From Candidatus Egerieisoma sp. (lineage in GTDB: Bacteria > Bacteroidota > Bacteroidia > Bacteroidales > UBA932), in the NCBI GenBank assembly GCA_045645465.1, contig JAZRIV010000007.1:5114-69113 (forward strand): a stretch of DNA of 64,000 nucleotides, in the 5' to 3' direction. Made by a program: the position numbers and the translations under genes. This document shows positions 8,565 to 43,775 of the stretch, piece after piece (position 1 is the first letter of the stretch; the number at the start of each line of letters is the position of its first letter). Below the pieces are notes generated by a model. That model made no database searches. It was not told the origin of the DNA and saw nothing but the letters and a program-made list of their open reading frames with translations.

Positions 8565-9902
8565 TTATTCGTTAATCTGGTTTACACCCAAAATTTTATC
8601 CAAAGAAGATTTTAGAGTCATATATGTATACACAGACTGGTTAAGGTTCAACCTTGCCTGCAACATACCCAACTGCGCATCCTGAAGCTCCAACAATGTA
8701 CCGCTTCCAACATCATATCTTTTCTTTGCTATCTCATATCCGGCCTGAGCCCCCTCTATAGTCTTCTGAGCTGCCTGATATTGTTTAAGGCTGGTTTCAA
8801 GAGAGTTAAGCACCTGCATTACACTAACCTCAAGGTTTCTTATTGCATCCTCTTTCTGAAGTGCAAGCTGCTCCTGCTGAACACGTGTCTGTCTCAGTTC
8901 ATTCCTCTTCTGTCCACCTGCAAAAATAGGGATAGACAAGGCAACTGCACCTGTTGAATAAGGGTTCCATTTATATTCACCTATCCTCAAATGCTCCGAC
9001 ATTGCTATCCAGTTGTATGAGAGCTGGGCTGCAAGTGTAGGATAATATTTTGCAAGTTGCATCTCGTATGTCTTGTCAAGCATCCTCTCCTGAATATCCA
9101 ACTGCTTGATTGCAGAGTTGTTCTCTACAGAAAGGTTATCATAAGAGGCAGTTGAAGCAACAGCACTCTCATAATCTGAAAGGGAACCTGTGCACTCTAT
9201 CTCCTGTGCCAAATCCAATCCAATAAGAGCTTTAAGTCTCCAGTTTGCAAGAACAATGCTGTTCTGCGCATCATACACATTAGGCTCTGCGTTCTGCATT
9301 GCAACTTCTGCACTCAAAAGCTCAAACTTTGAAGCAAGACCTGTATCAAATTTTGCCTTAACATCATTGTAATTGTCTTTTGCGTTGTCATAGTTCTCTT
9401 TGTAAACATTGTAAAGGTCCTTAGCCAACAACACACCATAGAAAGCCTGCTGCACCTGGTCAATCAAATCTACTCTTGAACCTTTAGCTTTCTCCACTGC
9501 CAGTTCCACATCCATACCTGTAATCTGAATAGCCTTCCAAAGCTGCACATTAACCAAAGGTAGAGCAGCTGTAAATCCTGCAGACCAAGTGTTGTTTACA
9601 CCAACTGTTATCTCCATCTCCTGCTCACCCATATTCATAACCATCTTCTGTTTCTTTATGGCACGCTGGTAACTGCCGCTGAAATCAATCTGAGGGAACA
9701 AAGAGGCGTATGTACCTTTCTCTGCATACTCTGTCCTCTTAATCTCCTTGTCTGCCACCTTTACTGCTATGTTCTCGCTCATTGCAACCTTAAGAGCATC
9801 ATCCAAGGTAAGGTGCAATGTATCCTGCGCCCAAGCAGAAGAAGACATAAATAGGGTTGCAACCACTGCAACCACGAACATTGTAAATTTAGTTCTTCTC
9901 AT
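8565..9902 (-). CDS. TolC family outer membrane efflux protein
   Basis: Signal peptide MRRTKFTMFVVAVVATLFMSSSAWAQ from ATG 9902 (the ORF-track start at 9926 is a TTG). Duplicated coiled-coil/barrel repeats are typical of the OMF family. Confidence 0.9.
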   Translation of the reverse strand: MRRTKFTMFVVAVVATLFMSSSAWAQDTLHLTLDDALKVAMSENIAVKVADKEIKRTEYAEKGTYASLFPQIDFSGSYQRAIKKQKMVMNMGEQEMEITVGVNNTWSAGFTAALPLVNVQLWKAIQITGMDVELAVEKAKGSRVDLIDQVQQAFYGVLLAKDLYNVYKENYDNAKDNYNDVKAKFDTGLASKFELLSAEVAMQNAEPNVYDAQNSIVLANWRLKALIGLDLAQEIECTGSLSDYESAVASTASYDNLSVENNSAIKQLDIQERMLDKTYEMQLAKYYPTLAAQLSYNWIAMSEHLRIGEYKWNPYSTGAVALSIPIFAGGQKRNELRQTRVQQEQLALQKEDAIRNLEVSVMQVLNSLETSLKQYQAAQKTIEGAQAGYEIAKKRYDVGSGTLLELQDAQLGMLQARLNLNQSVYTYMTLKSSLDKILGVNQINE

Positions 9903-10107
9903 TTTTTTATCTTTAATAATTATCAATTTTCAAAAACCAGTAAACCGGCTGCAAATATCTTGCAATAATACTCAAGAAATTTGGCGCAAAAATAAGTATT
10001 TTGGTTTAAAACTTAATAAACATATTGCCATTATTCCCGACAGTAGGTCATCCTGATATTTTTTATTCCAAAAAACAACAACATTCGCACAAAAAACTCC
10101 AAAAAAC

Positions 10108-10115
10108 TATCTTTG
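10108..10115 (+). promoter_or_regulatory. Bacteroidetes -7 promoter box (TATCTTTG) upstream of the AraC regulator
   Basis: Exact match to the TAnnTTTG consensus, 45 nt before ATG 10160. Confidence 0.5.
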
Positions 10116-10159
10116 CATAGATTTTGCAACCAAATTTTTCTACAAAATCCAAAACTGAA

Positions 10160-11089
10160 ATGAGAAAAAGAAGCATAAGTTCAAAAATAAATCTGCAACG
10201 ATTTGTAAAGATGATAGAGAGTTACAGTTTCAACGACAAACTGATAGCTGTAAACGTATCCCCATTTTCCCAAAGCAATCTGAAAGAATTCCCACCCTCA
10301 AATTCTGAGCCAAACCTCACTGAAACAATGATGGGATTCATGTTCATTATAGCCGGAGAGGTAGAGCTCTCTATAGATTATGTAAATTATACGTTTACAG
10401 AAAATTGCTGGGTAGAACTGAAACCATCTGCAGATGTGAAGCTGCTGGGGCACAGCGAAAATTTTACCGCATATTTGATTTTGGCTACAGAATCTTTTAT
10501 GCTTGATACACTTTTGGACAAAAAACCTATTCCTATTTCCCATTTTGTGGATATGAATGAGTCTCCACACATAAAAATTACAGATGAAGAGCTGGAGGCA
10601 TTAAAATTCAGTGCAGACAGGATACTCTATTATATGAAGCGGGAGCACAACTTTAAAAAAGATATGCTCCACAACACTTTCTACAACTTTATACTGGAAT
10701 CCAGCAACATATTCCGCAACAGAGACGGTGCAAGGAAACAGATGCAGAACCTCTCCCGCAAAGAGAATATAATAAGACACTTCCTTCACCTTGTAGAGGA
10801 ATATGCCATGACAGAGCACAACCCCTCTTTCTATTCAGACAAACTTTGCATCAGCACCCAGTATCTCTCAATCATCCTTAAAGAGACCACCGGGCATACC
10901 GCAAACTACTGGATTGCAAAGAAAATTACTGCCCAGGCAAAGGTTCTCCTTAGAACTCCAAACCTTACCATTAAGGAGATTACAGAGAAACTCCGTTTTG
11001 CAGACCAGTCATCTTTTGGCAAATTCTTTAAAAAGCACACCGGCATATCACCAAAAAAATACCGGGAAGACTTTTCTACTCCCCGGTAA
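10160..11089 (+). CDS. AraC family transcriptional regulator, divergent from the efflux operon
   Basis: C-terminal double HTH (...YSDKLCISTQYLSIILKETTGHTANYWIAKKITAQAKVLL...LRFADQSSFGKFFKKHTGISPKKYR). The start is ambiguous between ATG 10160 and ATG 10211; the ORF-track start at 10124 is a TTG at the predicted transcription start. Confidence 0.85.
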   Translation: MRKRSISSKINLQRFVKMIESYSFNDKLIAVNVSPFSQSNLKEFPPSNSEPNLTETMMGFMFIIAGEVELSIDYVNYTFTENCWVELKPSADVKLLGHSENFTAYLILATESFMLDTLLDKKPIPISHFVDMNESPHIKITDEELEALKFSADRILYYMKREHNFKKDMLHNTFYNFILESSNIFRNRDGARKQMQNLSRKENIIRHFLHLVEEYAMTEHNPSFYSDKLCISTQYLSIILKETTGHTANYWIAKKITAQAKVLLRTPNLTIKEITEKLRFADQSSFGKFFKKHTGISPKKYREDFSTPR

Positions 11090-31455: not shown

Positions 31456-31493
31456 ATTAGCGGAATCCATCAAAATTGAGAAATTCCGCTAAT
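31456..31493. repeat. Stem-loop element, copy 1 (ATTAGCGGAAT N16 ATTCCGCTAAT)
   Basis: Perfect 11-bp stem. Copy 2 at 36958-36996 has the same stems, a partly shared loop start (ATCAAAA) and a shared 3' flank (TAT...CTGCCAaATT vs CTGCCAgATT). Confidence 0.75.
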
Positions 31494-31722
31494 TATATTT
31501 ATTCTTAAGGTATCACCTGCCAAATTACTGTTGAAGCTCCAGAAACCTTCAATGGCAGAACCACACTATAAGGTTGGAAAGACTCTCTCAACTGCAGAGC
31601 CAGAGCAACTGAAGGAAATTCTGAGGATTCTGTATAAAAATGCAGTAGAAAAAAGAAGCAAGCAAAGATTAAGGATTCTAACCTGGATTCAAGTATTTTT
31701 ACCTTTAAGAAAAAATACCGCT

Positions 31723-32053: not shown

Positions 32054-32130
32054 ATGTGGTGCAAGAAAAAAGAAAAACCCTCTCAGAATTGCTTCTAAGA
32101 GGGTTTTTCGTACCCAGAGCCGGGGTCGAA
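32054..32130. repeat. att junction distal to the tRNA: ATGTGGTGCAA motif, terminator hairpin copy and 21-bp copy of the tRNA-Leu 3' end
   Basis: GTACCCAGAGCCGGGGTCGAA at 32110-32130 is identical to 43693-43713. The hairpin CCCTCTCAGAA/TTCTAAGAGGG (32078-32103) and the motif at 32054-32064 parallel 43626-43686. Confidence 0.8.
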
Positions 32131-32301: not shown

Positions 32302-33660
32302 ATGGCAACAGTAACAGCATTTATCAGAACATCTGCCAAAAAAGTAAGGGATGTAAATGTCCGTTTCCGCTTGAGGGATGGCAGGCAAATCCAATTGTTG
32401 TACAGCAGTGATATAACTGTTAATCCTGAACATTGGAATCCAAAAAAGGAGGAAATAAAGGCAAAGGTTCTGATGGATCCGGTTCTGAAGGCAGAATTCA
32501 ATAGAAATGTTGCCAGAATAAAGGAGATAATTATAGAGGTTTACAATAAGGCTGAGGATAAGGCGGCCCTAACTTCTGAATGGTTGGCTCTGCAGGTGGA
32601 AAGAACCCTTCACCCGGCTGTTCATGATGAGAAGGAAGAAAATAATTTCTTTGAGGATTTTGACCAGTTCCTGGAGGTGAAGAAGCTCTCCGAAGTGCGC
32701 ACCAGAAACTTTAAGGTAATTTACCGTGCCCTGCAAAGATTTGAACTGTATAGGAGATTCAACCGCTACAGCAAGTTTGCACTCTCTTTCAAATCTGTTA
32801 CTCCCGATATATTACGTGAATTTGAGGAGTTCCTTAGAATGGAGCATACCTTTTTTATCAAGGATGAGGAGACTGGCAAATTCAAATGCAGCAGGAAATA
32901 CAAACCTGTTTACGATGTGTTCCCTGAGGCAAGGACTCCTCAGCAAAGGGGGCAGAACACCATCAATGACATTTTCACCAAATTGAGAACTTTCTTCCGT
33001 TGGGCAGTGGAACAAGGGAAAACAGAAAACAATCCATTTAAGCATTTCTCAGTAGAGGATTGTGTATATGGTACGCCATATTACATCACTATAGATGAAA
33101 GGAACAAACTGTACCATACCAATATGGATGATAATCCTTCACTGGCTGTACAAAGAGATATATTTGTTTTTCAATGCCTGATAGGTTGCAGGGTGGGTGA
33201 TTTATATAATCTAACCAAGAAAAACATAATAAACGGTGCGGTAGAATATATCCCTCGTAAAACAAAAGATGGAAGACCGGTAACAGTAAGGGTGCCGCTC
33301 AATTCAATAGCAAAAGAGATACTGATGCGCTACAGGGAAACTCCAGGTACTGCACTATTCCCATTGGTCTCCCAGCAGAAATACAATATAGCCATAAAGA
33401 AAATGTTCCTGGCTGCTGACCTTACCCGCCCGGTAGTGGTATTCAACCCCACCACTAGCGAAGAAGAAATCCGCCCACTGCACGAAATTGCCTCATCCCA
33501 CCTGGCCCGCAGATGCTTCATAGGGAACCTCTATAAACAAGTGAAAGATCCCAACCTGGTAGGCGTTCTCAGCGGCCACAAAGAAGGCAGCAAAGCCTTC
33601 TCCAGATATAGGGAGATTGATGAACAAATGAAGAAGGATTTGGTGGGGATGTTGGAGTAG
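32302..33660 (+). CDS. Tyrosine site-specific integrase (Bacteroidetes phage-integrase type with N-terminal arm-binding domain)
   Basis: The N-terminus is MATVTAFIRTSAKKVRDVNVRFRLRDGRQIQL. The catalytic region has CLIGCRVGDL (Arg), ASSHLARRCF (HxxR) and SGHKEGSKAFSRYREID (His, Tyr). Confidence 0.9.
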   Translation: MATVTAFIRTSAKKVRDVNVRFRLRDGRQIQLLYSSDITVNPEHWNPKKEEIKAKVLMDPVLKAEFNRNVARIKEIIIEVYNKAEDKAALTSEWLALQVERTLHPAVHDEKEENNFFEDFDQFLEVKKLSEVRTRNFKVIYRALQRFELYRRFNRYSKFALSFKSVTPDILREFEEFLRMEHTFFIKDEETGKFKCSRKYKPVYDVFPEARTPQQRGQNTINDIFTKLRTFFRWAVEQGKTENNPFKHFSVEDCVYGTPYYITIDERNKLYHTNMDDNPSLAVQRDIFVFQCLIGCRVGDLYNLTKKNIINGAVEYIPRKTKDGRPVTVRVPLNSIAKEILMRYRETPGTALFPLVSQQKYNIAIKKMFLAADLTRPVVVFNPTTSEEEIRPLHEIASSHLARRCFIGNLYKQVKDPNLVGVLSGHKEGSKAFSRYREIDEQMKKDLVGMLE

Positions 33661-33664
33661 AATC

Positions 33665-34723
33665 CTAAACTAGGGGTAATGTTATAATAAATTTATTTTC
33701 TGCATACTCAATTCCATCGATTATTTTATTAACTTCTCCTGGTTCTATACCTAAGGTTCCACCATTTAGTTCTATTAACGTTTTTGCTCTGAACATGCCT
33801 ATTCCTTGACCAGCTTTGTTTGTTTTAATAGCCAGATGGCCTGAATATCCTTCATTAAAAATGTCCTTCTCTTCAATAGGTTCAATATACAAACTGCTCA
33901 TCTTAAATATAATATACTGCTCTTTGGCTGATCTTTCAAAATAAATATAAGCAGTTGAATTTGGTTCAATATATTTACATGCATTTTCTATTATGTGGTA
34001 TATTGCAACCTGAAAGGATTCGTAATCTAAGTTGACAGTTTCAAAACAATCTGCAACATCAACTCGCACTTTTATTGTATTAAAATCAATAAAGAACGAA
34101 TAAAGGATTCCAAGAATAACATTGCGAACATTATGACTCCTTTTGTTAATAGACATACGTCCCTTTAGAAGTTTCTCATAGATTGTAAATTCAGCTTTTG
34201 TCGCGATAGTATTCTTGGTAATACGAAATAATACTTCTGGAATATCGCGATTTTTGCTTAAAATTCTTGATTTTATGAAATCTAAAGCTTCGCGGTGATT
34301 CTTTGTCTTGATCAGCTCTTCTTGTGGAATAAGAGCATATATTTCACCAAGTGAATGAGCATTTAATGATCGTAGGTTGTGTACGACTCTATCTACTCTC
34401 TGGGTAATCTCAGATATGCACTGATCTTTGACAGAATTATAGGTTTCTATTAATGTTTTAATAGCTGGTATAATAATCTCAAAATCTGCATGGAAATTGC
34501 AAGTTTTTGTATAATTTTCGCCACATGCAAATAGATTGCCTTTGCAGCTCTCATTTAGTCTTATCCTTTTGAATGAATTGTCAAGAGGGCATACAATTCT
34601 GTTATAACTCTTAGGCGGTTGTACATTAGAAATTATGCAATGTTGACATTTGTCCGAGACAAGTTCGTTAATTATAGCCTGTCCACATTCATTTGTTATT
34701 AATTTGTGCAATTTCTTTTGCAT
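33665..34723 (-). CDS. Soluble histidine-kinase-like protein with a Cys-rich N-terminal domain
   Basis: There is no TM segment. Seven Cys lie in the first ~75 aa (CGQ..., KCQHC, VCPL, ESCKGNLFACGENYTKTC). An H-box-like VVHNLRSLNAH is followed by HATPase_c motifs: the N-box IIENACKYIE and G-box KAGQGIGMFRAKTLIELNGG. Confidence 0.75.
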   Translation of the reverse strand: MQKKLHKLITNECGQAIINELVSDKCQHCIISNVQPPKSYNRIVCPLDNSFKRIRLNESCKGNLFACGENYTKTCNFHADFEIIIPAIKTLIETYNSVKDQCISEITQRVDRVVHNLRSLNAHSLGEIYALIPQEELIKTKNHREALDFIKSRILSKNRDIPEVLFRITKNTIATKAEFTIYEKLLKGRMSINKRSHNVRNVILGILYSFFIDFNTIKVRVDVADCFETVNLDYESFQVAIYHIIENACKYIEPNSTAYIYFERSAKEQYIIFKMSSLYIEPIEEKDIFNEGYSGHLAIKTNKAGQGIGMFRAKTLIELNGGTLGIEPGEVNKIIDGIEYAENKFIITLPLV

Positions 34724-35309
34724 AGTCTGATATCAACTCTAAATATTCAATAGGATCTGCATCCTTACGTAAACAGTAATCAACTTTTCGTAAATCTTCA
34801 TCAAAACGATCTCCAACTGTTTCCGCAGAATAAATTATTACTTTTTTCTCAGGGAAGGTTTGCTTAATACGAGCTGCAAGGCCAAGTCCTTGCTTTGAGG
34901 ATAATTTTACAGCTACACCATTAATATCAATGAATATAATATGAGCAGCTCTAATATCAGCATCTTCTAGACTGTTGATGTCTTTTTTGTAAAGTACATT
35001 GTGCCAACCTGCTGATTTTACTGTTTTAGTCATGCCAAATTTTTGATCATCAACAAATAAAATGTTTGTTGATTTTTTTAGCACCTCTATATCAATTGTG
35101 TAGATCGAATTTGTAGTGTCTACTTTATCATTCGGATTTGTAAAGTTAATGTCTATCTTTTGGGTTAACGATTGTGTCTGTTGTTGTTTTTGTGTCTGCT
35201 TTTGTTTTTGACCTTGCTTTTGCTTTTGAAAAATTTTTTCAAATCCCCACAAAGAAGTAATAATAGTTATAATGATACCTAAAATTGCAATGATTTGATC
35301 TATTGTCAT
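34689..35309 (-). CDS. Membrane-anchored stand-alone receiver (REC) domain protein with a Q/K-rich linker
   Basis: The N-terminal TM helix is IIAILGIIITIITSLWGF, followed by the linker QKQKQGQKQKQTQKQQQTQ. The REC signature residues are present: ILFVDDQ, HIIFIDING, KVIIYSAE and CLRKDADP. Its 3' end overlaps the kinase start by 35 nt. Confidence 0.7.
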   Translation of the reverse strand: MTIDQIIAILGIIITIITSLWGFEKIFQKQKQGQKQKQTQKQQQTQSLTQKIDINFTNPNDKVDTTNSIYTIDIEVLKKSTNILFVDDQKFGMTKTVKSAGWHNVLYKKDINSLEDADIRAAHIIFIDINGVAVKLSSKQGLGLAARIKQTFPEKKVIIYSAETVGDRFDEDLRKVDYCLRKDADPIEYLELISDYAKEIAQINNK

Positions 35310-35356
35310 GTTTTTTTAGCAAGTTAATATATTTTTTTTGTTTATTGTCATTATAT

Positions 35357-36307
35357 ATGAGAAAAGTACTTAATGGAACAAATTTTGAGTTACATAAATT
35401 ATTCATTACATTTGACACTATGATTATTAATGACAACATAAATGTTCAGGATGACCGTTTAATGAACGGTCTTATTCCTATGGTGCGAATCATGTCTAAG
35501 ATTGAAAAATCTGGGGATGATAGGGTTGTTATAGATTTTTCTAAAACGGATTTTATTTCACCTGTTTTCGTGCTCTCTCTACTTGTTTATGCTAAAAAGA
35601 GTGGTAAAGAGATAATTTTTGAAAACTTGAATGAGTATATGAAAGCTATTCATATGGATGGCGGAATAAAACCCGATGAATTGAGAAATAGTGAGTTCCT
35701 TGCTATAATGGAAGGATACTCTAAGAGAACATATATTCCAGTTATTAATTTCCCTGCCAACAAAAATAATGATGAGAAAGAAGGTATTCTTTCAGCAGTT
35801 GAAGAATTAATAATAAGGCAGTTGAATATACCTAACAATGTTGCGTATGGTATAAAGTATATGTTAGGTGAAACTATTGATAATATCACTGAACATTCAG
35901 AAACTGATAGAGGTTTTTTATTCTGTCAGGCTTATAAAAATAAAGGATATTTGGATATATGTATAGCGGATAGTGGTGTTACATTGTTGGGTAGCTATCA
36001 AAAATTGGAAGATAAATTTATAGAGAATGATTTGGAAGCTATTAAGGCCGCAAATAGACAGATTTCAAGTAAGAACTTGCCAGATGCTGAAAATAGGGGT
36101 TATGGTATCTACACTTCTAAAAAGATGTTGATAAAAGGATTGTCCGGCCAATATATGATAATGTCTGGAAGTGCTATATACATGAAGAGTAAGACAATTG
36201 ATCAATTCTTTACTCTTCCAGAAGGATTGAGATGGGATGGTACAATTGTTGCACTTAGAATACCGTACCAAGCATCACAGTTTGATTATATTAAATACAT
36301 TGAGTAA
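35357..36307 (+). CDS. STAS-like N-terminal domain fused to a SpoIIAB/RsbW-type GHKL ATPase (serine-kinase-like) domain
   Basis: Taken from the first ATG at 35357; the ORF-track start at 35303 is a TTG. The N-domain is DDRVVIDFSKTDFISPVFVLSLLVYAKK. The GHKL motifs are GETIDNITEHSE, ICIADSGVTLLGS and NRGYGIYTSKKM. The exact start is uncertain. Confidence 0.65.
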   Translation: MRKVLNGTNFELHKLFITFDTMIINDNINVQDDRLMNGLIPMVRIMSKIEKSGDDRVVIDFSKTDFISPVFVLSLLVYAKKSGKEIIFENLNEYMKAIHMDGGIKPDELRNSEFLAIMEGYSKRTYIPVINFPANKNNDEKEGILSAVEELIIRQLNIPNNVAYGIKYMLGETIDNITEHSETDRGFLFCQAYKNKGYLDICIADSGVTLLGSYQKLEDKFIENDLEAIKAANRQISSKNLPDAENRGYGIYTSKKMLIKGLSGQYMIMSGSAIYMKSKTIDQFFTLPEGLRWDGTIVALRIPYQASQFDYIKYIE

Positions 36308-36319
36308 AAGAAGAAAGCT

Positions 36320-36682
36320 ATGATAACAATTGATATTACAAGACTTTTGTCACAGGATTTGAAATCTAGGTCAAGGGCGCAAGATTTGCTATTGTATGTT
36401 CAGAATTGTGATGAGCAAGAGGTTGTGATAGATTTTCAGAATGTTAAGTTTGCAACCAGAAGCTTTATTGATGAATTCTACAATTTATTCATAAAGGAAA
36501 CTTCAAATTTGCCTTTCAAGGTGGAAATTGATAATGTTCCTGAGGATATACAAATAATGCTTAATTCTGTTAGCAATACGCAAACAAGAGCAAAGAACAG
36601 GACGGTTAATGCAACAGCTGAAGTAATAAATTTTGATAGTATGGATAGCATGCTCAAGTATATGAGCACAGTCGCATTTTGA
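36320..36682 (+). CDS. Free-standing STAS-like (DUF4325-like) protein
   Basis: 120 aa. The core EQEVVIDFQNVKFATRSFIDEFYNLF is paralogous to the N-domain of the upstream gene. It starts 12 nt after that gene and is followed by a terminator. Confidence 0.65.
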   Translation: MITIDITRLLSQDLKSRSRAQDLLLYVQNCDEQEVVIDFQNVKFATRSFIDEFYNLFIKETSNLPFKVEIDNVPEDIQIMLNSVSNTQTRAKNRTVNATAEVINFDSMDSMLKYMSTVAF

Positions 36683-36703
36683 GAAATAAAATATTTCTAT
36701 AGA

Positions 36704-36729
36704 GGGTTGGATAAGTTCCAGCCCTTTTT
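36704..36729 (+). terminator. Rho-independent terminator of the STAS/GHKL operon
   Basis: GGGTTGGA and TCCAGCCC form a stem (one G-T pair) with a 5-nt loop, followed by TTTTT. Confidence 0.65.
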
Positions 36730-36957
36730 GTTGTCTATGGATAATAAAATCCCCTCTTCCCACAATTTCATTGTCTATAGACAACGAAATTTCTCTCAGC
36801 AATGATTCCTGTTAAAAGGATGATATGTTACCTTTAATCAATAATATTTCAAAAAACTGTAGGTTGTAAAGACAATGTGACGGAGGGGTTAAGTTGGGGG
36901 TCAAGTCAGAAAAAGGGTACAAGTCAAAGCTCACGTACCCCATGTTTTTGCATTATA

Positions 36958-36996
36958 ATTAGCGGAATCTATCAAAAAAGACACGATTCCGCTAAT
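36958..36996. repeat. Stem-loop element, copy 2 (ATTAGCGGAAT N17 ATTCCGCTAAT)
   Basis: It has the same 11-bp stems as 31456-31493 and shared flanking bases. Confidence 0.75.
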
Positions 36997-37193
36997 TATC
37001 TTTTATCCCAAGTGGGTGTTTCTGCCAGATTGCCGTATCAAACGTACACCTATGTGTAGTTCTGTGCAGCTCTGTGGAGATTAAAATGGGGTAAAATGTT
37101 ACTTTTTGTTACACAGAGTATTACGTAGCTGTACGGGTCTTTTTAGGCATAAAATTTGTGGCAATTGATGATGCTGAACAAAGAGGATGATAT

Positions 37194-38121: not shown

Positions 38122-38421
38122 ATGGAATACGATCTAATTCATCTGGCAAAGTAATGTCCTGGGCTTACTGTATCAATCAAACTTACTGATCTTGTAGAAG
38201 CCAACAAAAAACTTATTGAGGAAACAAAAAGAAACCTTCAGCAAACCCTGGAGGATGCCAAGAGTGAGGAATATCTCTCAAGGGAAAAGGTCATTGAGTG
38301 GCTGGAGGTGTCGGCAACCACATTGTGGAGGTGGGAGAAATGCGGATATCTGATTCCTATAGCTGTCGGGAATAAGAAAAAGTACCGCATGTCTGATATT
38401 CAGAAAATCCTGCAGCAATGA
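38122..38421 (+). pseudogene. MerR/excisionase-type HTH gene interrupted by an in-frame TAA (or using a non-canonical internal start)
   Basis: The frame reads MEYDLIHLAK-TAA(38152)-CPGLTV...EYLSREKVIEWLEVSATTLWRWEKCGYLIPIAVGNKKKYRMSDIQKILQQ. The C-terminal part is a typical small HTH of Bacteroides mobile elements. Its stop overlaps the next ATG (ATGA). Confidence 0.45.
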
Positions 38422-38900
38422 AATCCAAGAATGGTAGGCCGTTCTTTATGGTTTATCAGTTTTTTGCTCAGGAACTGGGGTTGCGGGGAGCGGCAAAGGA
38501 GGTATATGCAATCATCTATGGCCGTTATGTGTCATTTGATGGGGTGGCGAAAGTCTCTCTGAGGGAAATGATGCGCCTTACAGGACTTACCAAGCAGAGC
38601 GTCATAAATGCACTTAAGGCCCTGCAGGAGGCAGGACTCATAGAGAAAACCGCCTCTACCAACAAGAAAAGCACCTACAAAATCCAGGGTATAGAGATTA
38701 GTCCCGACGGCAAACCGGTAAAAATTTTAGACCAGTCAAAAATTTTGACCAGTAAGGGGTCAAAAAACTTTACCAGTAGAGGTGAAAAAATTAGACCACA
38801 TATAGATAAAACAGATACTCTTAATAAATACAGTAAAAATGAAAATTCATCAATTAATCTTGAATCTCCAAGCAACTTCAGAGGGAGAACAACTCTGTAA
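38418..38900 (+). CDS. Winged-helix replication-initiator-like protein
   Basis: The wHTH segment is VSLREMMRLTGLTKQSVINALKALQEAGLIEK. The gene contains four iteron-like repeats and is followed by a DnaC/IstB-like ATPase gene. Confidence 0.55.
   Translation: MKSKNGRPFFMVYQFFAQELGLRGAAKEVYAIIYGRYVSFDGVAKVSLREMMRLTGLTKQSVINALKALQEAGLIEKTASTNKKSTYKIQGIEISPDGKPVKILDQSKILTSKGSKNFTSRGEKIRPHIDKTDTLNKYSKNENSSINLESPSNFRGRTTL
38720..38800 (+). repeat. Four 17-bp iteron-like direct repeats (putative replication origin) inside the initiator gene
   Basis: The repeats are aaaaattttagaccagt (38720), caaaaattttgaccagt (38737), caaaaaactttaccagt (38761) and gaaaaaattagaccaca (38784). A very AT-rich stretch follows. 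Confidence 0.55.
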
Positions 38901-39483
38901 ACCGGGTAAATTGCAAGAGAAAAAAGAAAATATTGAATCTGCTCTGCAGATGCTTTATAAAATACAGGTGGAAGCCAGAGGAAGGGAATTTATAGCTGAT
39001 GCCCCAACCCTCGACAAGCTGAATCTCGCTGCAAAATGGCTTGGCTGTAGTCAAAAATTTGGACTAGTGCTTTATGGAAATGTAGGTTCCGGCAAAACCA
39101 TGCTCCTGAACTCTCTTACGCAACTGTTTTTCCGTACTGGCTGCTTTATACCTCACATAATTAGCACTACGGCAGCAGAACTGCAAAGATACTATGTGCA
39201 GGATCAAAGCGCAGAAGGCTTCTACGGAGTAGCTAAAAACTGCAAAATCCTACTGCTTGACGACCTTGGTTGCGAACCAGAGAACTGCATCATATACGGC
39301 ACTTCATACCATCCCATCTCAGAAATAATCTACCACCGTTACCGCAACCAGCTCACCACAATTCTAACCACAAACCTCACCGACAGCGAACTTGCTTCCC
39401 GATATGGTCCCCGCATAATGGACCGCCTTGAAGAGTCATTTGATTTCATTGCCTACACCAACCCCAGCTACAGGAAGAGGTGA
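38839..39483 (+). CDS. DnaC/IstB-like AAA+ ATPase (helicase-loader-like)
   Basis: Walker A is LVLYGNVGSGKT and Walker B is ILLLDDLGCEP. The start is ambiguous between ATG 38839 (overlapping the upstream gene) and ATG 38950. Confidence 0.75.
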   Translation: MKIHQLILNLQATSEGEQLCKPGKLQEKKENIESALQMLYKIQVEARGREFIADAPTLDKLNLAAKWLGCSQKFGLVLYGNVGSGKTMLLNSLTQLFFRTGCFIPHIISTTAAELQRYYVQDQSAEGFYGVAKNCKILLLDDLGCEPENCIIYGTSYHPISEIIYHRYRNQLTTILTTNLTDSELASRYGPRIMDRLEESFDFIAYTNPSYRKR

Positions 39484-39668: not shown

Positions 39669-40049
39669 ATGCTTCCAAAGATGAATAAAACCAAGATGCT
39701 CACACTCAGAATGACTGAGGCTGAGTTTGTGGAATTCAAGTATATTATGAATGAGGCCGGATATAAATCAATGTCCAAATTCATCAGGTATAAAGTATTT
39801 AGAGGAAAAGAGCGGACAGTGCGGACCAAGCTGCATGATGAGAATGTGATTACCGTTCTCAAAGCTCTGATTATGGAGGTTAACAAGGTTGGTGTAAATT
39901 ACAATCAACTGGTAAGAAAATTCAATGCCCAAAAGCCATATGGTCCCGATGATTATAGATATAAACTGATGCACGATCTGCAAGAACTGACAAAAAAGAT
40001 GTTAAGGACTCTTTCGGAGGTGAAGGAGGGGATTGTGGGGAAATCTTGA
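39669..40049 (+). CDS. MobC-family (ribbon-helix-helix) mobilisation relaxosome accessory protein
   Basis: LTLRMTEAEFVEFKYIMNEAGYKSMSKFIRY is the RHH part. VNKVGVNYNQLVRKFN is the family-typical xGxNxNQxxRxxN motif. Confidence 0.7.
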   Translation: MLPKMNKTKMLTLRMTEAEFVEFKYIMNEAGYKSMSKFIRYKVFRGKERTVRTKLHDENVITVLKALIMEVNKVGVNYNQLVRKFNAQKPYGPDDYRYKLMHDLQELTKKMLRTLSEVKEGIVGKS

Positions 40050-40068
40050 TAATTTTGTAAATTTGGCT

Positions 40069-40257
40069 ATGCGAAAATTCAAACCTGTCATACTCCTTTT
40101 CTGCCTGGCTGTTTTAATGTATGGCCTTAGCTATATCCCAACTCTTCATTGGGCCCATGATGGGTTCACACAATCATTATGCAGGGGAATATCTTATTTC
40201 CTTTTGGGATGTGGGATTTTGATGATAATTACTTTATTTGTAAGCATGAGAAAATGA
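40069..40257 (+). CDS. Possible small two-TM membrane protein
   Basis: 62 aa from ATG 40069 (MRKFKPVILLFCLAVLMYGL...). The -7 box TAAATTTG at 40058-40065 lies 3 nt upstream. No homology recognised. Confidence 0.3.
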   Translation: MRKFKPVILLFCLAVLMYGLSYIPTLHWAHDGFTQSLCRGISYFLLGCGILMIITLFVSMRK

Positions 40258-40292
40258 ACTGTAAGCTCAATTAGATTTAAAATATTTTAAGA

Positions 40293-41537
40293 ATGAGTTT
40301 TATAGAAAAAGATACATATGGGATTGAAGATATTCAGTCCTTAATAGAAATTCAGGCAGAAGAAAATACATACTATGAATTTAAGGATGCAAGGGCTATT
40401 GATGATAAGCAGAAGGCTGAAATCTCAAAAGATGTGTCTGCATTTGCAAATGCCGATGGGGGTGTTATTATCTATGGTTTGAATGAAGATAGAAATACCC
40501 ACAAGGCATCATGTTTGAGTTTTGTTAACTCTTCAAGATATTCAAAGGAATGGCTTGAAAATGTTATTCTGTCTAATATACACAGAAAGATTGATGGGCT
40601 TTATCCAACTACTGAAAGTTTTAAAGTATGGGCACAATACTCAGCTTCTGATCTTACAGCGTGGGAAAACGGTAATACATACATGGATGCTGTTACATGT
40701 GTACATGACGCGACTAAAAAAGGCTGGATCCCTAGCGGGGCCCAATATTACTGGCCTAAAAACGGAAAGTTGTCTTTTGCAGCATTTTCGCCTGCATCAA
40801 CGACCAATGTAACATATGATAAAACAGGTGTAACAGTTAAAGATTATATTGTTCCAAGTACAGAAAATCATACCGATCTTTTGTACAGTCACAGAGCATA
40901 CAATAAGACTGCTACTAATCAGGATGATATTCCAGATATTCCTAATTACACAGGAGTTGACATTAACTTCCATCATGCATTGACTTCTGTTATATTCAAA
41001 GTAAAACAGGCTGCAGCATATACAGGCACCACTTTAACATTAAAATCAATACAATTAAACAATGTATATAGCAAAGGTACTTTCAAAGAGAATATAACTG
41101 CTCAAACTGGGGGGACAGATGATGATAAATGTACAAGAGCACCTGGTTGGAGTGATCAAGAACAAGAGGTGATTTATACAGTAATAAGTGATATCTCCCA
41201 AGTTTTAACTACATCAGCTGTTGTTGTATCTGGTGCAAAAGACATGCTTTTGATTGGACAGAAATATAATCATGGAACTAAATACGTAAGCATGACTGTT
41301 ACCTATACTATAAAGAGTCCTACCGGTAGTGAAATTTTACAGAGTAGTACAGTAGAATTCAAAGGCCTTACACACAAGGTTAATGGTACTGATGCAGTAA
41401 GCAGCATTCAAGATGGGTGGTACCCAGGATACGAATATACTTATATAATATCTATTGGATTGAATGGTGAAATTCAATTTGAGCCAATTGTTAGTGAATG
41501 GACTCCTATTTTGGCTGATCCAGAAATTGGATTGTAA
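40293..41537 (+). pseudogene. Chimeric ORF: AlbA_2/Schlafen-type N-terminal fragment fused in frame to a signal-less fimbrillin (FimA/Mfa-like) C-terminal portion
   Basis: The first ~105 aa (YYEFKDARAIDDKQKAEISKDVSAFANADGGVIIYGL) match the AlbA_2 DNA-binding domain. The rest (FKVWAQ..., YYWPKNGKLSFAAFSP, HTDLLYS, INFHHALTSVIFKVK, IQLNNVYSKGTF) matches fimbrillin family proteins lacking their lipoprotein leader. The junction is near 40600-40620. Confidence 0.6.
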
Positions 41538-43625: not shown

Positions 43626-43713
43626 ATGTGGTGCAAATGTGGTGCAACCAAAAAGAAAAACCCTCTTAGAGATATCTCTAAGAGGGTTTCAAGTACCCAG
43701 AGCCGGGGTCGAA
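43626..43713. repeat. att junction at the tRNA: tandem ATGTGGTGCAA motifs, terminator hairpin and 21-bp core (part of the tRNA)
   Basis: ATGTGGTGCAA occurs at 43626-43636 and again at 43637-43647. The core GTACCCAGAGCCGGGGTCGAA lies at 43693-43713. Confidence 0.8.
43651..43686 (-). terminator. Rho-independent terminator of tRNA-Leu, supplied by the end of the integrated element
   Basis: Perfect 13-bp arms CCCTCTTAGAGAT/ATCTCTAAGAGGG, followed on the minus strand by TTTTTCTTTT. Confidence 0.7.
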
Positions 43714-43775
43714 CCGGCACGGGTCGCCCCACTGGTGTTTGAGACCAGCGCGTCTACCGATTCCGCCATCTGGGC
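43694..43775 (-). tRNA. tRNA-Leu (anticodon CAA), type II with long variable arm
   Basis: The minus strand reads GCCCAGATGGCGGAATCGGTAGACGCGCTGGTCTCAAACACCAGTGGGGCGACCCGTGCCGGTTCGACCCCGGCTCTGGGTA. The anticodon stem is CTGGT/ACCAG with loop CTCAAAC, and the T-arm is GCCGG-TTCGACC-CCGGC. Confidence 0.85.

Follow-up and report, generated by a model that had tools for sequence, protein, structure and literature searches.

What does a kinase-type protein control when it is encoded next to a STAS-like partner but without an output gene in cis? This question is raised by two adjacent genes on the forward strand of the window, i.e. the whole stretch of 64,000 nucleotides that was analysed. The first gene (35420..36307, +) encodes a 295-aa STAS-like::GHKL serine-kinase-type protein, here called K, which was placed in the VapK/CapK superfamily using the open reading frame list, its homologues, an AF2 model searched with Foldseek, and hhalign. 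The second gene (36320..36682, +) encodes S, a 120-aa free STAS-like protein that is VapS-like and of the DUF4325 type according to AF2, Foldseek and hhalign. The preliminary description had called the role of such pairs undescribed. This does not apply to the sister families CapK/CapS and VapK/VapS/VapC, which were characterised in 2026 (Chambers et al., EMBO J, PMC13373217). The effector-less two-gene form remains undescribed.

The gene for K had been described as starting at 35357. This upstream ATG is an alternative start, which adds 21 residues that are not conserved. The homologues of K are 295-296 aa long and their alignment opens at MIINDN..., so that the true start is most likely the ATG at 35420. 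In the AF2 model K begins 13 residues ahead of the first STAS helix. The stop at 36307 and the position of the small gene at 36320-36682 were retained, and all motifs quoted earlier for both proteins were found in the sequences. In K these are DDRVVIDFSKTDFISPVFVLSLL (residues 33-55), GETIDNITEHSE (residues 150-161), IADSGVT (182-188) and GYGIYTSKKM (227-236), and S contains EQEVVIDFQNVKFATRSFIDEF (residues 32-53).

Profile searches gave weak matches. HATPase_c_2 matched the C-terminus of K with E=0.026 (14.9 bits, gathering cut-off 27.4), and DUF4325 matched the N-terminus of K with E=0.077 (13.2 bits, cut-off 23) and S with E=4e-4 (20.5 bits, cut-off 23). The proposed assignment to PF14213 (DUF4325) and HATPase_c_2 was thus recovered as matches to both families, but every score was below the gathering threshold and Pfam alone would not confirm the folds. 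Some close homologues of S have precomputed PF14213 matches, and the DUF4325 relationship is therefore real, though the proteins of the window are sub-threshold. K matched phrog_3364 (E=4.5e-32). In NCBIfam no match was obtained for K and only noise for S, and a profile search with the S alignment for domain fusions returned only the same close family. PADLOC had no model matching S; its DrmA model matched residues 113-245 of K weakly (E=7.6e-6). Membership in DISARM was considered on account of this match and rejected, and the match was read as a GHKL-like module in common. When the K profile was searched against PDB sequences the sole match was a superoxide reductase (E=0.49), and no PDB anti-sigma factor was returned, so that a fold search was needed.

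The AF2 model of K had a pLDDT of 85.8 and a pTM of 0.87. With Foldseek, its C-terminal half matched SpoIIAB (1til/1thn/1tid, prob 1.00, TM 0.71-0.77) and also RsbW (6m37), and its N-terminal part matched the STAS proteins TM1442 (1vc1, prob 1.00) and RsbS, as well as 6jhk. The N-terminal STAS-like segment and the C-terminal GHKL domain of SpoIIAB/RsbW type, both of which had been proposed from the letters, are hence borne out at the level of the fold.

The GHKL (Bergerat-fold) kinase domain comprises residues 116-295 (35765..36307, +). Its conservation was followed in 117 diverged relatives that are 28-39% identical to the protein of the window. The N-box residues E151, N155 (codon 35882-35884) and H159 were present in all 117. 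In the G1 box (D184-x-G186) and the lid (S216-S-K218...R226-G227-x-G229), D184 was kept in 114 relatives, G186, G227, G229 and K218 each in 116, and S216 and R226 each in 115. With its ATP-binding residues intact, K is predicted to be a catalytically competent GHKL serine kinase.

The STAS-like domain of K comprises residues 1-115 (35420..35764, +; Foldseek 1vc1, 6jhk). Among 110 aligned relatives position 45 was aromatic in 99 (F85/Y7/W7), and P48 was kept in 103. F45 (codon 35552-35554) aligned in MAFFT with F54 of VapK, and the F54A mutation in VapK abolishes phage protection (PMC13373217). The kinase had been suggested to carry a tethered pseudo-substrate. We did not find this: the residue of K that aligns with the invariant Ser48 of S, the phosphosite equivalent, is hydrophobic (V49), and the adjacent S47 is not conserved (H30/N18/S16/Y12 among the same 110 relatives). 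The tethered STAS domain has no conserved serine at this place.

S was modelled with a pLDDT of 82.4, as a STAS core (residues 1-92) followed by a disordered linker and a C-terminal helix (108-117). The model matched the STAS domains of SLC26/prestin, RsbS, SpoIIAA (1tid_B, prob 0.95) and MlaB in Foldseek, in agreement with the earlier view of S as a free STAS-like partner of K. The further claim that the small protein repeats the STAS-like core of K was supported by a profile-to-profile alignment of the two cores over 29 columns (E=5.6e-4). Ser48 of S (codon 36461-36463), the predicted phospho-acceptor, lies in the motif T46-R47-S48-F49-x-D51-E52. In 74 unique homologues of S (24-100% identity) positions [TS]46, R47, S48, F49 and E52 were invariant; position 46 was always T or S and is an alternative acceptor candidate. 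The C-terminal tail was poorly conserved among the homologues.

S follows K closely. Wherever a genome locus had sufficient flanking sequence it adjoined K, usually immediately downstream and separated by -8 to +28 nt, and it was present in 79 of 80 viral loci with K; the pairing also held in four distant members. A terminator-like hairpin (36701..36727, +), with an 11-bp stem containing 5 GC pairs and then a T-run, is located directly 3' of the S stop and marks the end of a two-gene operon. In the window the S gene is followed by a gap of 512 nt and then by an unrelated membrane-protein ORF. The hairpin is part of a 1.39-kb cassette (35407..36794, +) that was found by blastn at about 93.5% identity in two otherwise unrelated contexts (L012 and L013).

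A kinase of this fold with a STAS partner might work as a classical partner switch in trans, in which K acts as an anti-sigma factor, sequestering a sigma factor or other transcription protein that the host or phage encodes elsewhere, and S is its anti-anti-sigma antagonist. The nearest solved structures are indeed SpoIIAB, RsbW and their STAS antagonists, K has the lid motif ISSKNLPDAENRGYGI, which we take to resemble the SpoIIAB lid, and JGI labels homologues of the pair as 'anti-sigma regulatory factor' and 'anti-anti-sigma regulatory factor'. However, neither Sigma70 nor SpoIIE/PP2C recurred among 150 neighbour proteins, where each was found at most once, and neither was present in the integrative element of the window; the absence of a linked sigma factor, noted from the start, was thereby confirmed. 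The pair also occurs on phages, plasmids and integrative elements of archaea as well as bacteria, and archaea are, to our knowledge, without sigma factors. K also has a fused STAS domain and is closer in homology to VapK/CapK, which suggests that it belongs with the sensor kinases and argues against a partner switch; we consider such a switch decidedly unlikely.

Pairs of this kind had been proposed to recur as two-gene modules of mobile DNA, and this was found to be so in both bacteria and archaea, on phages, on plasmids and on integrative elements. With clustering at 50% identity, a profile search returned 232 clusters for E<=1e-30 and 801 for E<=1e-10; the members came from Bacteroidales, Cyanobacteria, methanogens and haloarchaea, among others. 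In the window K-S is carried by a tRNA-Leu integrative element of 11.6 kb, of which a second copy (L011) was found with 94-99.8% identity. In IMG/VR, 124 phage contigs contained K-S. In the plasmid collection the only two matches were distant ones, a K-S pair on a plasmid of the haloarchaeon Halobaculum and a K::S fusion in Nostoc.

This distribution could mean that K-S serves the mobile element, either by timing the induction of a prophage or element after DNA damage or as anti-defence against CapK/VapK-type signalling of the host. The pair was conserved in identical arrangement across a lineage of Bacteroides phages of about 60 kb (63 IMG/VR contigs and phage BF1-TP2, in which the genes are gp43/gp42), was found as ORFB/ORFC within the inserted fragment IFa of the archaeal prophage psiM100, and came directly after an integrase in four loci and in L011. 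A probable Francisella prophage pair is located between repressor and integrase (PMC7924643). On the other hand, S is acidic (pI 4.6) and without a DNA-binding domain, and many copies were found on chromosomes among capsule or housekeeping genes, away from any element. We therefore judge service to the element to be unlikely. S was also considered as a repressor that binds DNA in the manner of CapS, and this was rejected on account of its size, fold, acidity and lack of similarity to CapS. No notable palindrome was found in the 110-nt region upstream of K; the sole palindrome was inside the neighbouring gene.

The neighbourhoods of about 160 loci (80 genome and 80 viral) were inspected for an output gene. 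Clustering of 555 neighbour ORFs from 90 loci revealed no conserved third gene, and only integrases recurred (6 loci). The gene downstream of S was co-directional in 40 of 71 loci and within 100 nt in 10 of 71. Nine close downstream genes were compared with Pfam: six were housekeeping or metabolic (polysaccharide flippase, Tex, bile-salt hydrolase, peptidase C69, APH and DUF386), and the remaining three were a small HTH_3 protein, a DUF6922 protein and one without a match. None of the nine recurred, none was a PIN nuclease and none belonged to a known immune operon; PIN was also not among the recurrent neighbour families of K-S. The neighbourhoods showed only modest enrichment in defence genes, and capsule or housekeeping loci were frequent. 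We concluded that this is a form of the system without an output gene in cis, having no VapC, wHTH, sigma factor or conserved third gene.

The preliminary description had linked the pair to an adjacent His-Asp-like pair, which corresponds to the PADLOC candidate PDC-M43, and the two might form one four-gene system. They adjoin each other in the window and are divergently transcribed from a 110-nt intergenic region common to both. Yet homologues of PDC-M43A/B were absent from the surroundings of K-S both in 80 genome loci (within 10 kb) and in 80 viral loci (within 6 kb), and L011 lacks exactly the stretch 33661-35381 of the window, a 1.72-kb indel that holds PDC-M43. The linkage thus did not hold beyond the window. 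PDC-M43 is separate cargo, and a four-gene system is extremely improbable.

The pair could itself be a complete system of toxin-antitoxin or abortive-infection type, made up of two proteins of which one is toxic. K might, after S has been consumed or released, phosphorylate essential proteins of the host; alternatively S, phosphorylated or not, might be toxic and be neutralised or activated by K, similar to type VII toxin-antitoxin systems. In its behaviour the cassette resembles a toxin-antitoxin or small defence module: it is a small mobile unit in variable contexts, its genes are tightly spaced, both K and S are under strong purifying selection, and a natural fusion of the two exists in Nostoc. 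The sister system VapKSC is a toxin-antitoxin-type defence (PMC13373217). Against this, neither K nor S has a recognisable toxic domain, and no PADLOC model covers the pair except for the weak match in the DrmA region. We also know of no SpoIIAB-type kinase toxin. We regard a toxic partner as rather unlikely; it is a specific version of the output in the explanation that we prefer and does not contradict it.

In the preferred explanation K-S is a self-contained operon that probably works as a kinase-substrate switch of the CapK/VapK-CapS/VapS type. Judged by profile similarity, the pair is distantly homologous to VapK/VapS and CapK/CapS and is related to these DNA-damage-sensing switches. In the characterised systems an ssDNA-activated kinase phosphorylates a conserved serine of its STAS partner, with the ssDNA trigger being inferred for VapK; in both CapK and VapK the tethered STAS domain packs on the kinase and forms an ssDNA-sensing groove, and the free STAS protein fills the active site (PMC13373217). 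By analogy, K would be an active GHKL serine kinase of the SpoIIAB/RsbW class. Its own STAS-like domain would not be phosphorylatable and would pack on the kinase domain with a sensing or regulatory function. Infection or DNA damage would provide the cue that activates K, as ssDNA does for CapK, and K would most likely phosphorylate S on Ser48 in the T-R-S-F motif of helix 2. This phosphorylation would change the choice of protein bound by S. The output would lie in trans, with phosphorylated S, free S or free K acting on a partner encoded by the host or the invader; alternatively K or S itself may be the growth-arresting effector. We infer phosphotransfer, trigger and output from homology, at about 21% identity to VapK. 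The trigger in particular may differ from ssDNA, because K is acidic (pI 5.35, family range 4.9-6.9) and K175, which aligns with the ssDNA contact K239 of CapK, is a lysine in only 65 of 115 relatives.

Taken one step further, K-S would be a complete and autonomous stress or infection switch, in which phosphorylated S, released S or S-free K acts directly on a conserved protein that the host or an invader encodes at another locus, or itself arrests growth, giving an output unlike those of CapKS and VapKSC. We put this forward tentatively, as a possibility that we would sooner doubt than assume. If true, K-S would be the form of the CapK/VapK family that is ancestral, minimal and most widespread, common to bacteria, archaea and their viruses, and toxins, wHTH domains and helicases would be later additions to it. 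Both forms described in 2026 have an obvious output, a repressor domain in CapKS and an adjacent toxin in VapKSC, whereas the family studied here retains kinase, sensor domain and phospho-acceptor under strong selection and yet encodes no output. The target of S or K would reveal how a minimal two-protein phospho-switch works as a mobile module, which form of the family arose first, and whether phages and integrative elements of gut Bacteroidales use K-S for defence, addiction or induction timing. The assignment made here also provides annotation pipelines with a functional name for the many pairs of 'ATP-binding protein' and DUF4325.

How K-S relates to what is known can be seen at several distances. 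Pfam DUF4325 (PF14213, 'STAS-like domain of unknown function'), phrog_3364 and phrog_20761 are annotation bins to which no function is assigned, and the phage pair is deposited in GenBank as 'ATP-binding protein' and 'DUF4325 domain-containing protein'. Genes of the DUF4325 type have been reported as coupled with the PIN.4 group of VapC (PMC5499597). SpoIIAB-SpoIIAA and RsbW-RsbV were the best structural matches for K and S in Foldseek, and share with them the N, G1 and G2 boxes of Ser-kinase-type GHKL proteins and a STAS partner with a conserved serine on helix 2. Unlike these modules, K-S has a STAS domain fused to the kinase, has no linked sigma factor or PP2C phosphatase, and is found in archaea and phages.

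CapKS consists of CapK, an ssDNA-activated kinase, and CapS, which carries a wHTH and represses the adjacent immune operon (PMC13373217; PDB 9z71-9z73). K aligned with CapK over the kinase domain (E=0.0036) with N-box and lid motifs in common, but residues 1-80 of CapK were unmatched and its N-terminal HTH is absent from K. S immediately follows K, as CapS follows CapK. The T-x-S-F motif of S corresponds to T-D-S58-F and A-T-D-S-S54-F in CapS, where S54 and S58 are experimentally proven phosphosites. Nevertheless, S is acidic and had no significant profile similarity to CapS (hhalign E=0.54), and it ends with the linker and one short helix in place of the C-terminal wHTH. CapKS sits upstream of an immune operon, and K-S has no conserved downstream immune operon.

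A second close relative is VapKSC, composed of the kinase VapK, the STAS antitoxin VapS and the adjacent PIN toxin/nuclease VapC (PMC13373217; PDB 9z7o). The VapC-like third gene has no counterpart in the K-S loci; the order of K and then S is the same. K (295 aa) and VapK (302 aa) have the same STAS::GHKL architecture and share N-box, G1, lid and GT[IL] motifs in MAFFT, in addition to the aligned aromatic residues F45 and F54, although K is acidic and VapK basic (pI 8.8). With hhalign they aligned over 241 columns and both domains (E=3e-4), and S aligned with VapS (E=1.5e-5), both at probabilities that were modest (39% for K, 80% for S) because single sequences served as templates. VapS (9z7o_A) was also the best PDB sequence match of S. 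The two are of similar length (120 aa and 116 aa) and both have a STAS core and a short C-terminal helix; the tail of VapS blocks the active site of the toxin, whereas that of S is poorly conserved. A conserved serine is present at position 48 in both, within T-R-S-F in S and A-S48-P in VapS, and distant members of the S family have S-R-S-P, resembling VapS.

The open reading frame of the putative kinase, K, runs on the forward strand to a stop at 36307 and offers three starts: TTG at 35303, ATG at 35357, which had been chosen in the preliminary description, and ATG at 35420. Since nearly all of 669 database homologues were 295-296 aa long and aligned from MIINDN... onwards, ATG 35420 is the best-supported start. 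The gene for the free STAS-like protein, S (36320-36682, 120 aa), lies 12 nt 3' of K in the same direction, and is followed by a terminator-like hairpin with an 11-bp stem and a T-run (36701-36727). All motifs quoted earlier for the two proteins were found in their sequences.

Profile libraries by themselves gave equivocal domain calls. K matched HATPase_c_2 (E=0.026) and DUF4325 (E=0.077) and S matched DUF4325 (E=4e-4), in each case under the Pfam gathering score. No useful match was obtained for either protein in an NCBIfam scan, and PHROGs placed both in families of unknown function. A PDB sequence search with the K-family profile found no relative; the best PDB match of the S profile was annotated as Escherichia VapS (9z7o). 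The calls were settled by structure comparison. In the AF2 model of K (pLDDT 85.8, pTM 0.87) the C-terminal half resembled SpoIIAB (prob 1.00, TM 0.71-0.77) and RsbW, and the N-terminal part resembled the STAS proteins TM1442 and RsbS. The model of S (pLDDT 82.4) resembled the STAS domains of SLC26/prestin as well as RsbS, SpoIIAA and MlaB. The STAS-like cores of K and S also aligned with each other, profile to profile, over 29 columns (E=5.6e-4). The proposed architecture, a STAS-like::GHKL fusion with a free STAS-like companion, was thereby confirmed.

S proved to be obligately linked to K. Among 80 GTDB genome loci S adjoined K wherever a flank existed, usually directly 3' on the same strand with a gap of typically -8 to +28 nt. 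In three Porphyromonas loci (L081, L087, L089; ~9600-10852) the order was inverted, the S-like gene lying directly 5' and overlapping the start of K by 4 nt. S was present in 79 of 80 IMG/VR viral loci, and the remaining locus had no downstream sequence. The pair was found as gp43/gp42 of Bacteroides phage BF1-TP2 (annotated "ATP-binding protein" and "DUF4325 domain-containing protein"), as ORFB/ORFC of the Methanothermobacter prophage psiM100, within its "inserted fragment IFa", on a Halobaculum plasmid, where an unannotated S comes after K, and probably in a Francisella prophage. Four distant K representatives were each followed by an S-like gene of 113-118 aa. One of these (P0326; L174 1-3801, 3818-4171) carries an SF2 (DEAD/ResIII) helicase N-terminal to STAS::GHKL and is followed by a 117-aa S-like gene; another (P0330; L175 15-1598, 1608-1949) has a 264-aa N-terminus of no known identity and a 113-aa S-like gene. 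K modules fused to other domains thus still keep their own S gene. On plasmid pANSO36B of Nostoc cf. commune, K and S are naturally fused in one 414-aa protein (WP_251960854; L172 1914-3158), with K at residues 26-276 and the S-like STAS, bearing the motif I-S-S-S-F-A-D-E, at residues 338-396. This fusion provides Rosetta-stone support for a direct partnership of K and S. The gene that follows it encodes a DUF5895 protein. At E<=1e-3 the K family counted 2,498 representative clusters, the weakest of which may include other GHKL proteins; the number fell to 801 at E<=1e-10 and to 232 at E<=1e-30.

A conserved third component was not found in 555 clustered neighbour ORFs, among which only tyrosine integrases recurred (6 loci). 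The gene downstream of the pair was co-directional in 40 of 71 loci and lay within 100 nt in only 10 of the 71. Nine close downstream genes were scanned against Pfam and showed no recurrence: in six the domains were housekeeping or metabolic ones (polysaccharide flippase, APH, Tex, DUF386, bile-salt hydrolase, peptidase C69), one encoded a small HTH_3 protein, one a protein with DUF6922, and the last had no match. In psiM100 a 492-aa ORFD (L010 4964-6442), mostly inside IFa, begins 11 nt past the S homologue; it had no match in a Pfam scan and is a possible lineage-specific third gene. The neighbour families were heterogeneous and included some defence genes (GajA, PDC-S01, AbiL, SoFic, AriA/OLD-like), integrases, IS66 and capsule genes; sigma factors, PP2C phosphatases and PIN domains did not recur among them. 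The earlier reading of a kinase-substrate pair that lacks a sigma factor holds.

In the window an integrative element of 11.6 kb, probably mobilisable, carries the pair as cargo. Imperfect direct repeats of 77 nt with 86% identity flank the element (32054-32130 and 43637-43713); the second overlaps the 3' end of the insertion site, a tRNA-Leu(caa) gene on the reverse strand (43693-43775). The element encodes a tyrosine integrase (32302-33660), an HTH/RepL-like protein (38418-38900), an IstB/DnaC-like ATPase (38839-39483) and a MobC-like protein (39669-40049), and its GC content falls to 0.32-0.37. A 20-nt repeat (AGTCAAAAATTTTGACCAGT and variants) occurs in four copies at 38717-39068, three in tandem within the 3' end of the HTH gene; these may serve the replication/mobilisation module of the element as iterons or binding sites. 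At 36955-36999, 3' of the terminator, there is a perfect inverted repeat of 15 nt (ATAATTAGCGGAATC ... GATTCCGCTAATTAT). Both of its arms are copied at 31456-31509, ~5.5 kb away and outside the left repeat of the element, and it may be a small repeated palindromic element. An ORF at 40293-41537 on the forward strand (414 aa) joins an N-terminal Schlafen AlbA_2 domain (residues 24-103) to a fimbrillin-like Mfa domain (residues 110-403), an odd chimera that was possibly fused at a recombination joint.

The same element was found in a second locus, L011, at 94-99.8% identity. The two copies diverge at 39946-40585, just upstream of the Schlafen/Mfa ORF. L011 lacks exactly 33661-35381, so that its K-S cassette abuts the stop of the integrase gene. 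This 1.72-kb indel is the PADLOC candidate defence system PDC-M43, previously described as a His-Asp pair and encoded on the reverse strand. PDC-M43B (33665-34723, E=2e-97) has a HATPase_c-like C-terminus; PDC-M43A (34689-35309, E=1e-53) combines an N-terminal TM helix with a Q/K-rich linker, and gave no Response_reg match at E<=1 in a Pfam scan. PDC-M43 accompanied K-S in none of 160 other loci and was not mentioned in the literature searched. The suggested linkage of the two pairs was accordingly not borne out, and we concluded that they are independent cargo modules sharing a hot spot beside the integrase by chance. A 1.39-kb stretch (35407-36794) recurs by itself in two other contexts (L012, L013) at ~93.5% identity. 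K-S is a self-contained, mobile two-gene operon.

Two kinase-STAS systems have been characterised (Chambers et al., EMBO J 2026; PMC13373217), and their sequences were taken from the source data of that study. CapK (HTH-STAS-GHKL) is activated by ssDNA and phosphorylates the conserved serine of CapS (STAS-wHTH), S54, which breaks the repressor dimer and de-represses a downstream immune operon (PMC13373217). VapK (STAS-GHKL, 302 aa) is encoded with the antitoxin VapS (116 aa, a STAS domain and short C-terminal helix, conserved serine S48) and the PIN toxin VapC, in an operon protective against phage Bas42 (PMC13373217). The K profile aligned with both domains of VapK (241 columns, E=3e-4, 21% identity) and with the CapK kinase domain (E=0.0036). 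The S profile aligned with VapS (E=1.5e-5) and not significantly with CapS (E=0.54). K-S is thus homologous to VapK/VapS. A multiple alignment that took in phage and archaeal members showed the motifs common to these kinases: the N-box (E..N..EHS), G1, the lid (G.S[ST]K...RG.G) and GT[IL].

Among 117 diverged relatives of K (28-39% identity), the ATP-binding residues E151, N155 and H159 were kept in all, D184 in 114 and G186, G227 and G229 in 116; of the lid residues, S216 and R226 were kept in 115 and K218 in 116. In its STAS domain, position 45 was aromatic (F85/Y7/W7 of 110) and P48 was kept in 103 of 110. F45 aligns with F54 of VapK, whose mutation to alanine abolished defence (PMC13373217). 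Ser47 was unconserved (H30/N18/S16/Y12...) and the residue aligned to S48 of S is hydrophobic, so the tethered STAS is predicted not to be a phospho-substrate; in the published models it forms one wall of the groove for ssDNA and lies outside the active site (PMC13373217). The earlier view of a tethered pseudo-substrate is not supported. Sequence and model show K as a SpoIIAB-class kinase that looks active and carries a fused, apparently non-phosphorylatable STAS domain.

In 74 unique S homologues (24-100% identity) the invariant positions were [TS]46, R47, S48, F49, E52, R17 and V84; of these, S48 corresponds to the residue that is phosphorylated in CapS and VapS. The motif T-R-S48-F matches the proven CapS phosphosite T-D-S58-F (crystallised S58A protein, UniProt A0A9Q4UMM) and that of Enterobacter, A-T-D-S-S54-F; distant members have S-R-S-P, like A-S48-P of VapS. 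In the model S48 lies in the first turn of helix 2 (residues 47-58), the same place as the STAS phosphoserine. Activated K would phosphorylate S on Ser48, and conservation says that the switch is likely to be functional.

K may respond to ssDNA, as CapK does. We give this about an even chance, because K is acidic (pI 5.35; VapK has 8.8) and only 65 of 115 relatives keep the lysine that aligns with K239 of CapK. The helicase::K fusion and a weak PADLOC match of K to the N-terminal part of a DrmA model fit a nucleic-acid-related role of the K module. S is acidic and has no DNA-binding domain; its C-terminal tail, equivalent to the VapS tail that blocks VapC, is poorly conserved. No effector is encoded in cis, and the most likely outputs are a partner encoded elsewhere, K or S itself acting as a toxin-antitoxin-like effector, or a service to the mobile element (induction timing, counter-defence).

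In the literature searched, PMC13373217 alone joins a STAS domain, GHKL and anti-phage activity; it mentions neither DUF4325, two-gene forms nor Bacteroidales. A sensor kinase with fused STAS and a STAS substrate, and no sigma factor, is a kind of system known since 2026 (PMC13373217), and the pair can no longer be called undescribed in that sense. Unlike VapKSC, K-S has no VapC, and unlike CapK/CapS it has no HTH on K, no wHTH on S and no regulated downstream operon. The two-gene form thus fails the defining features of both systems.
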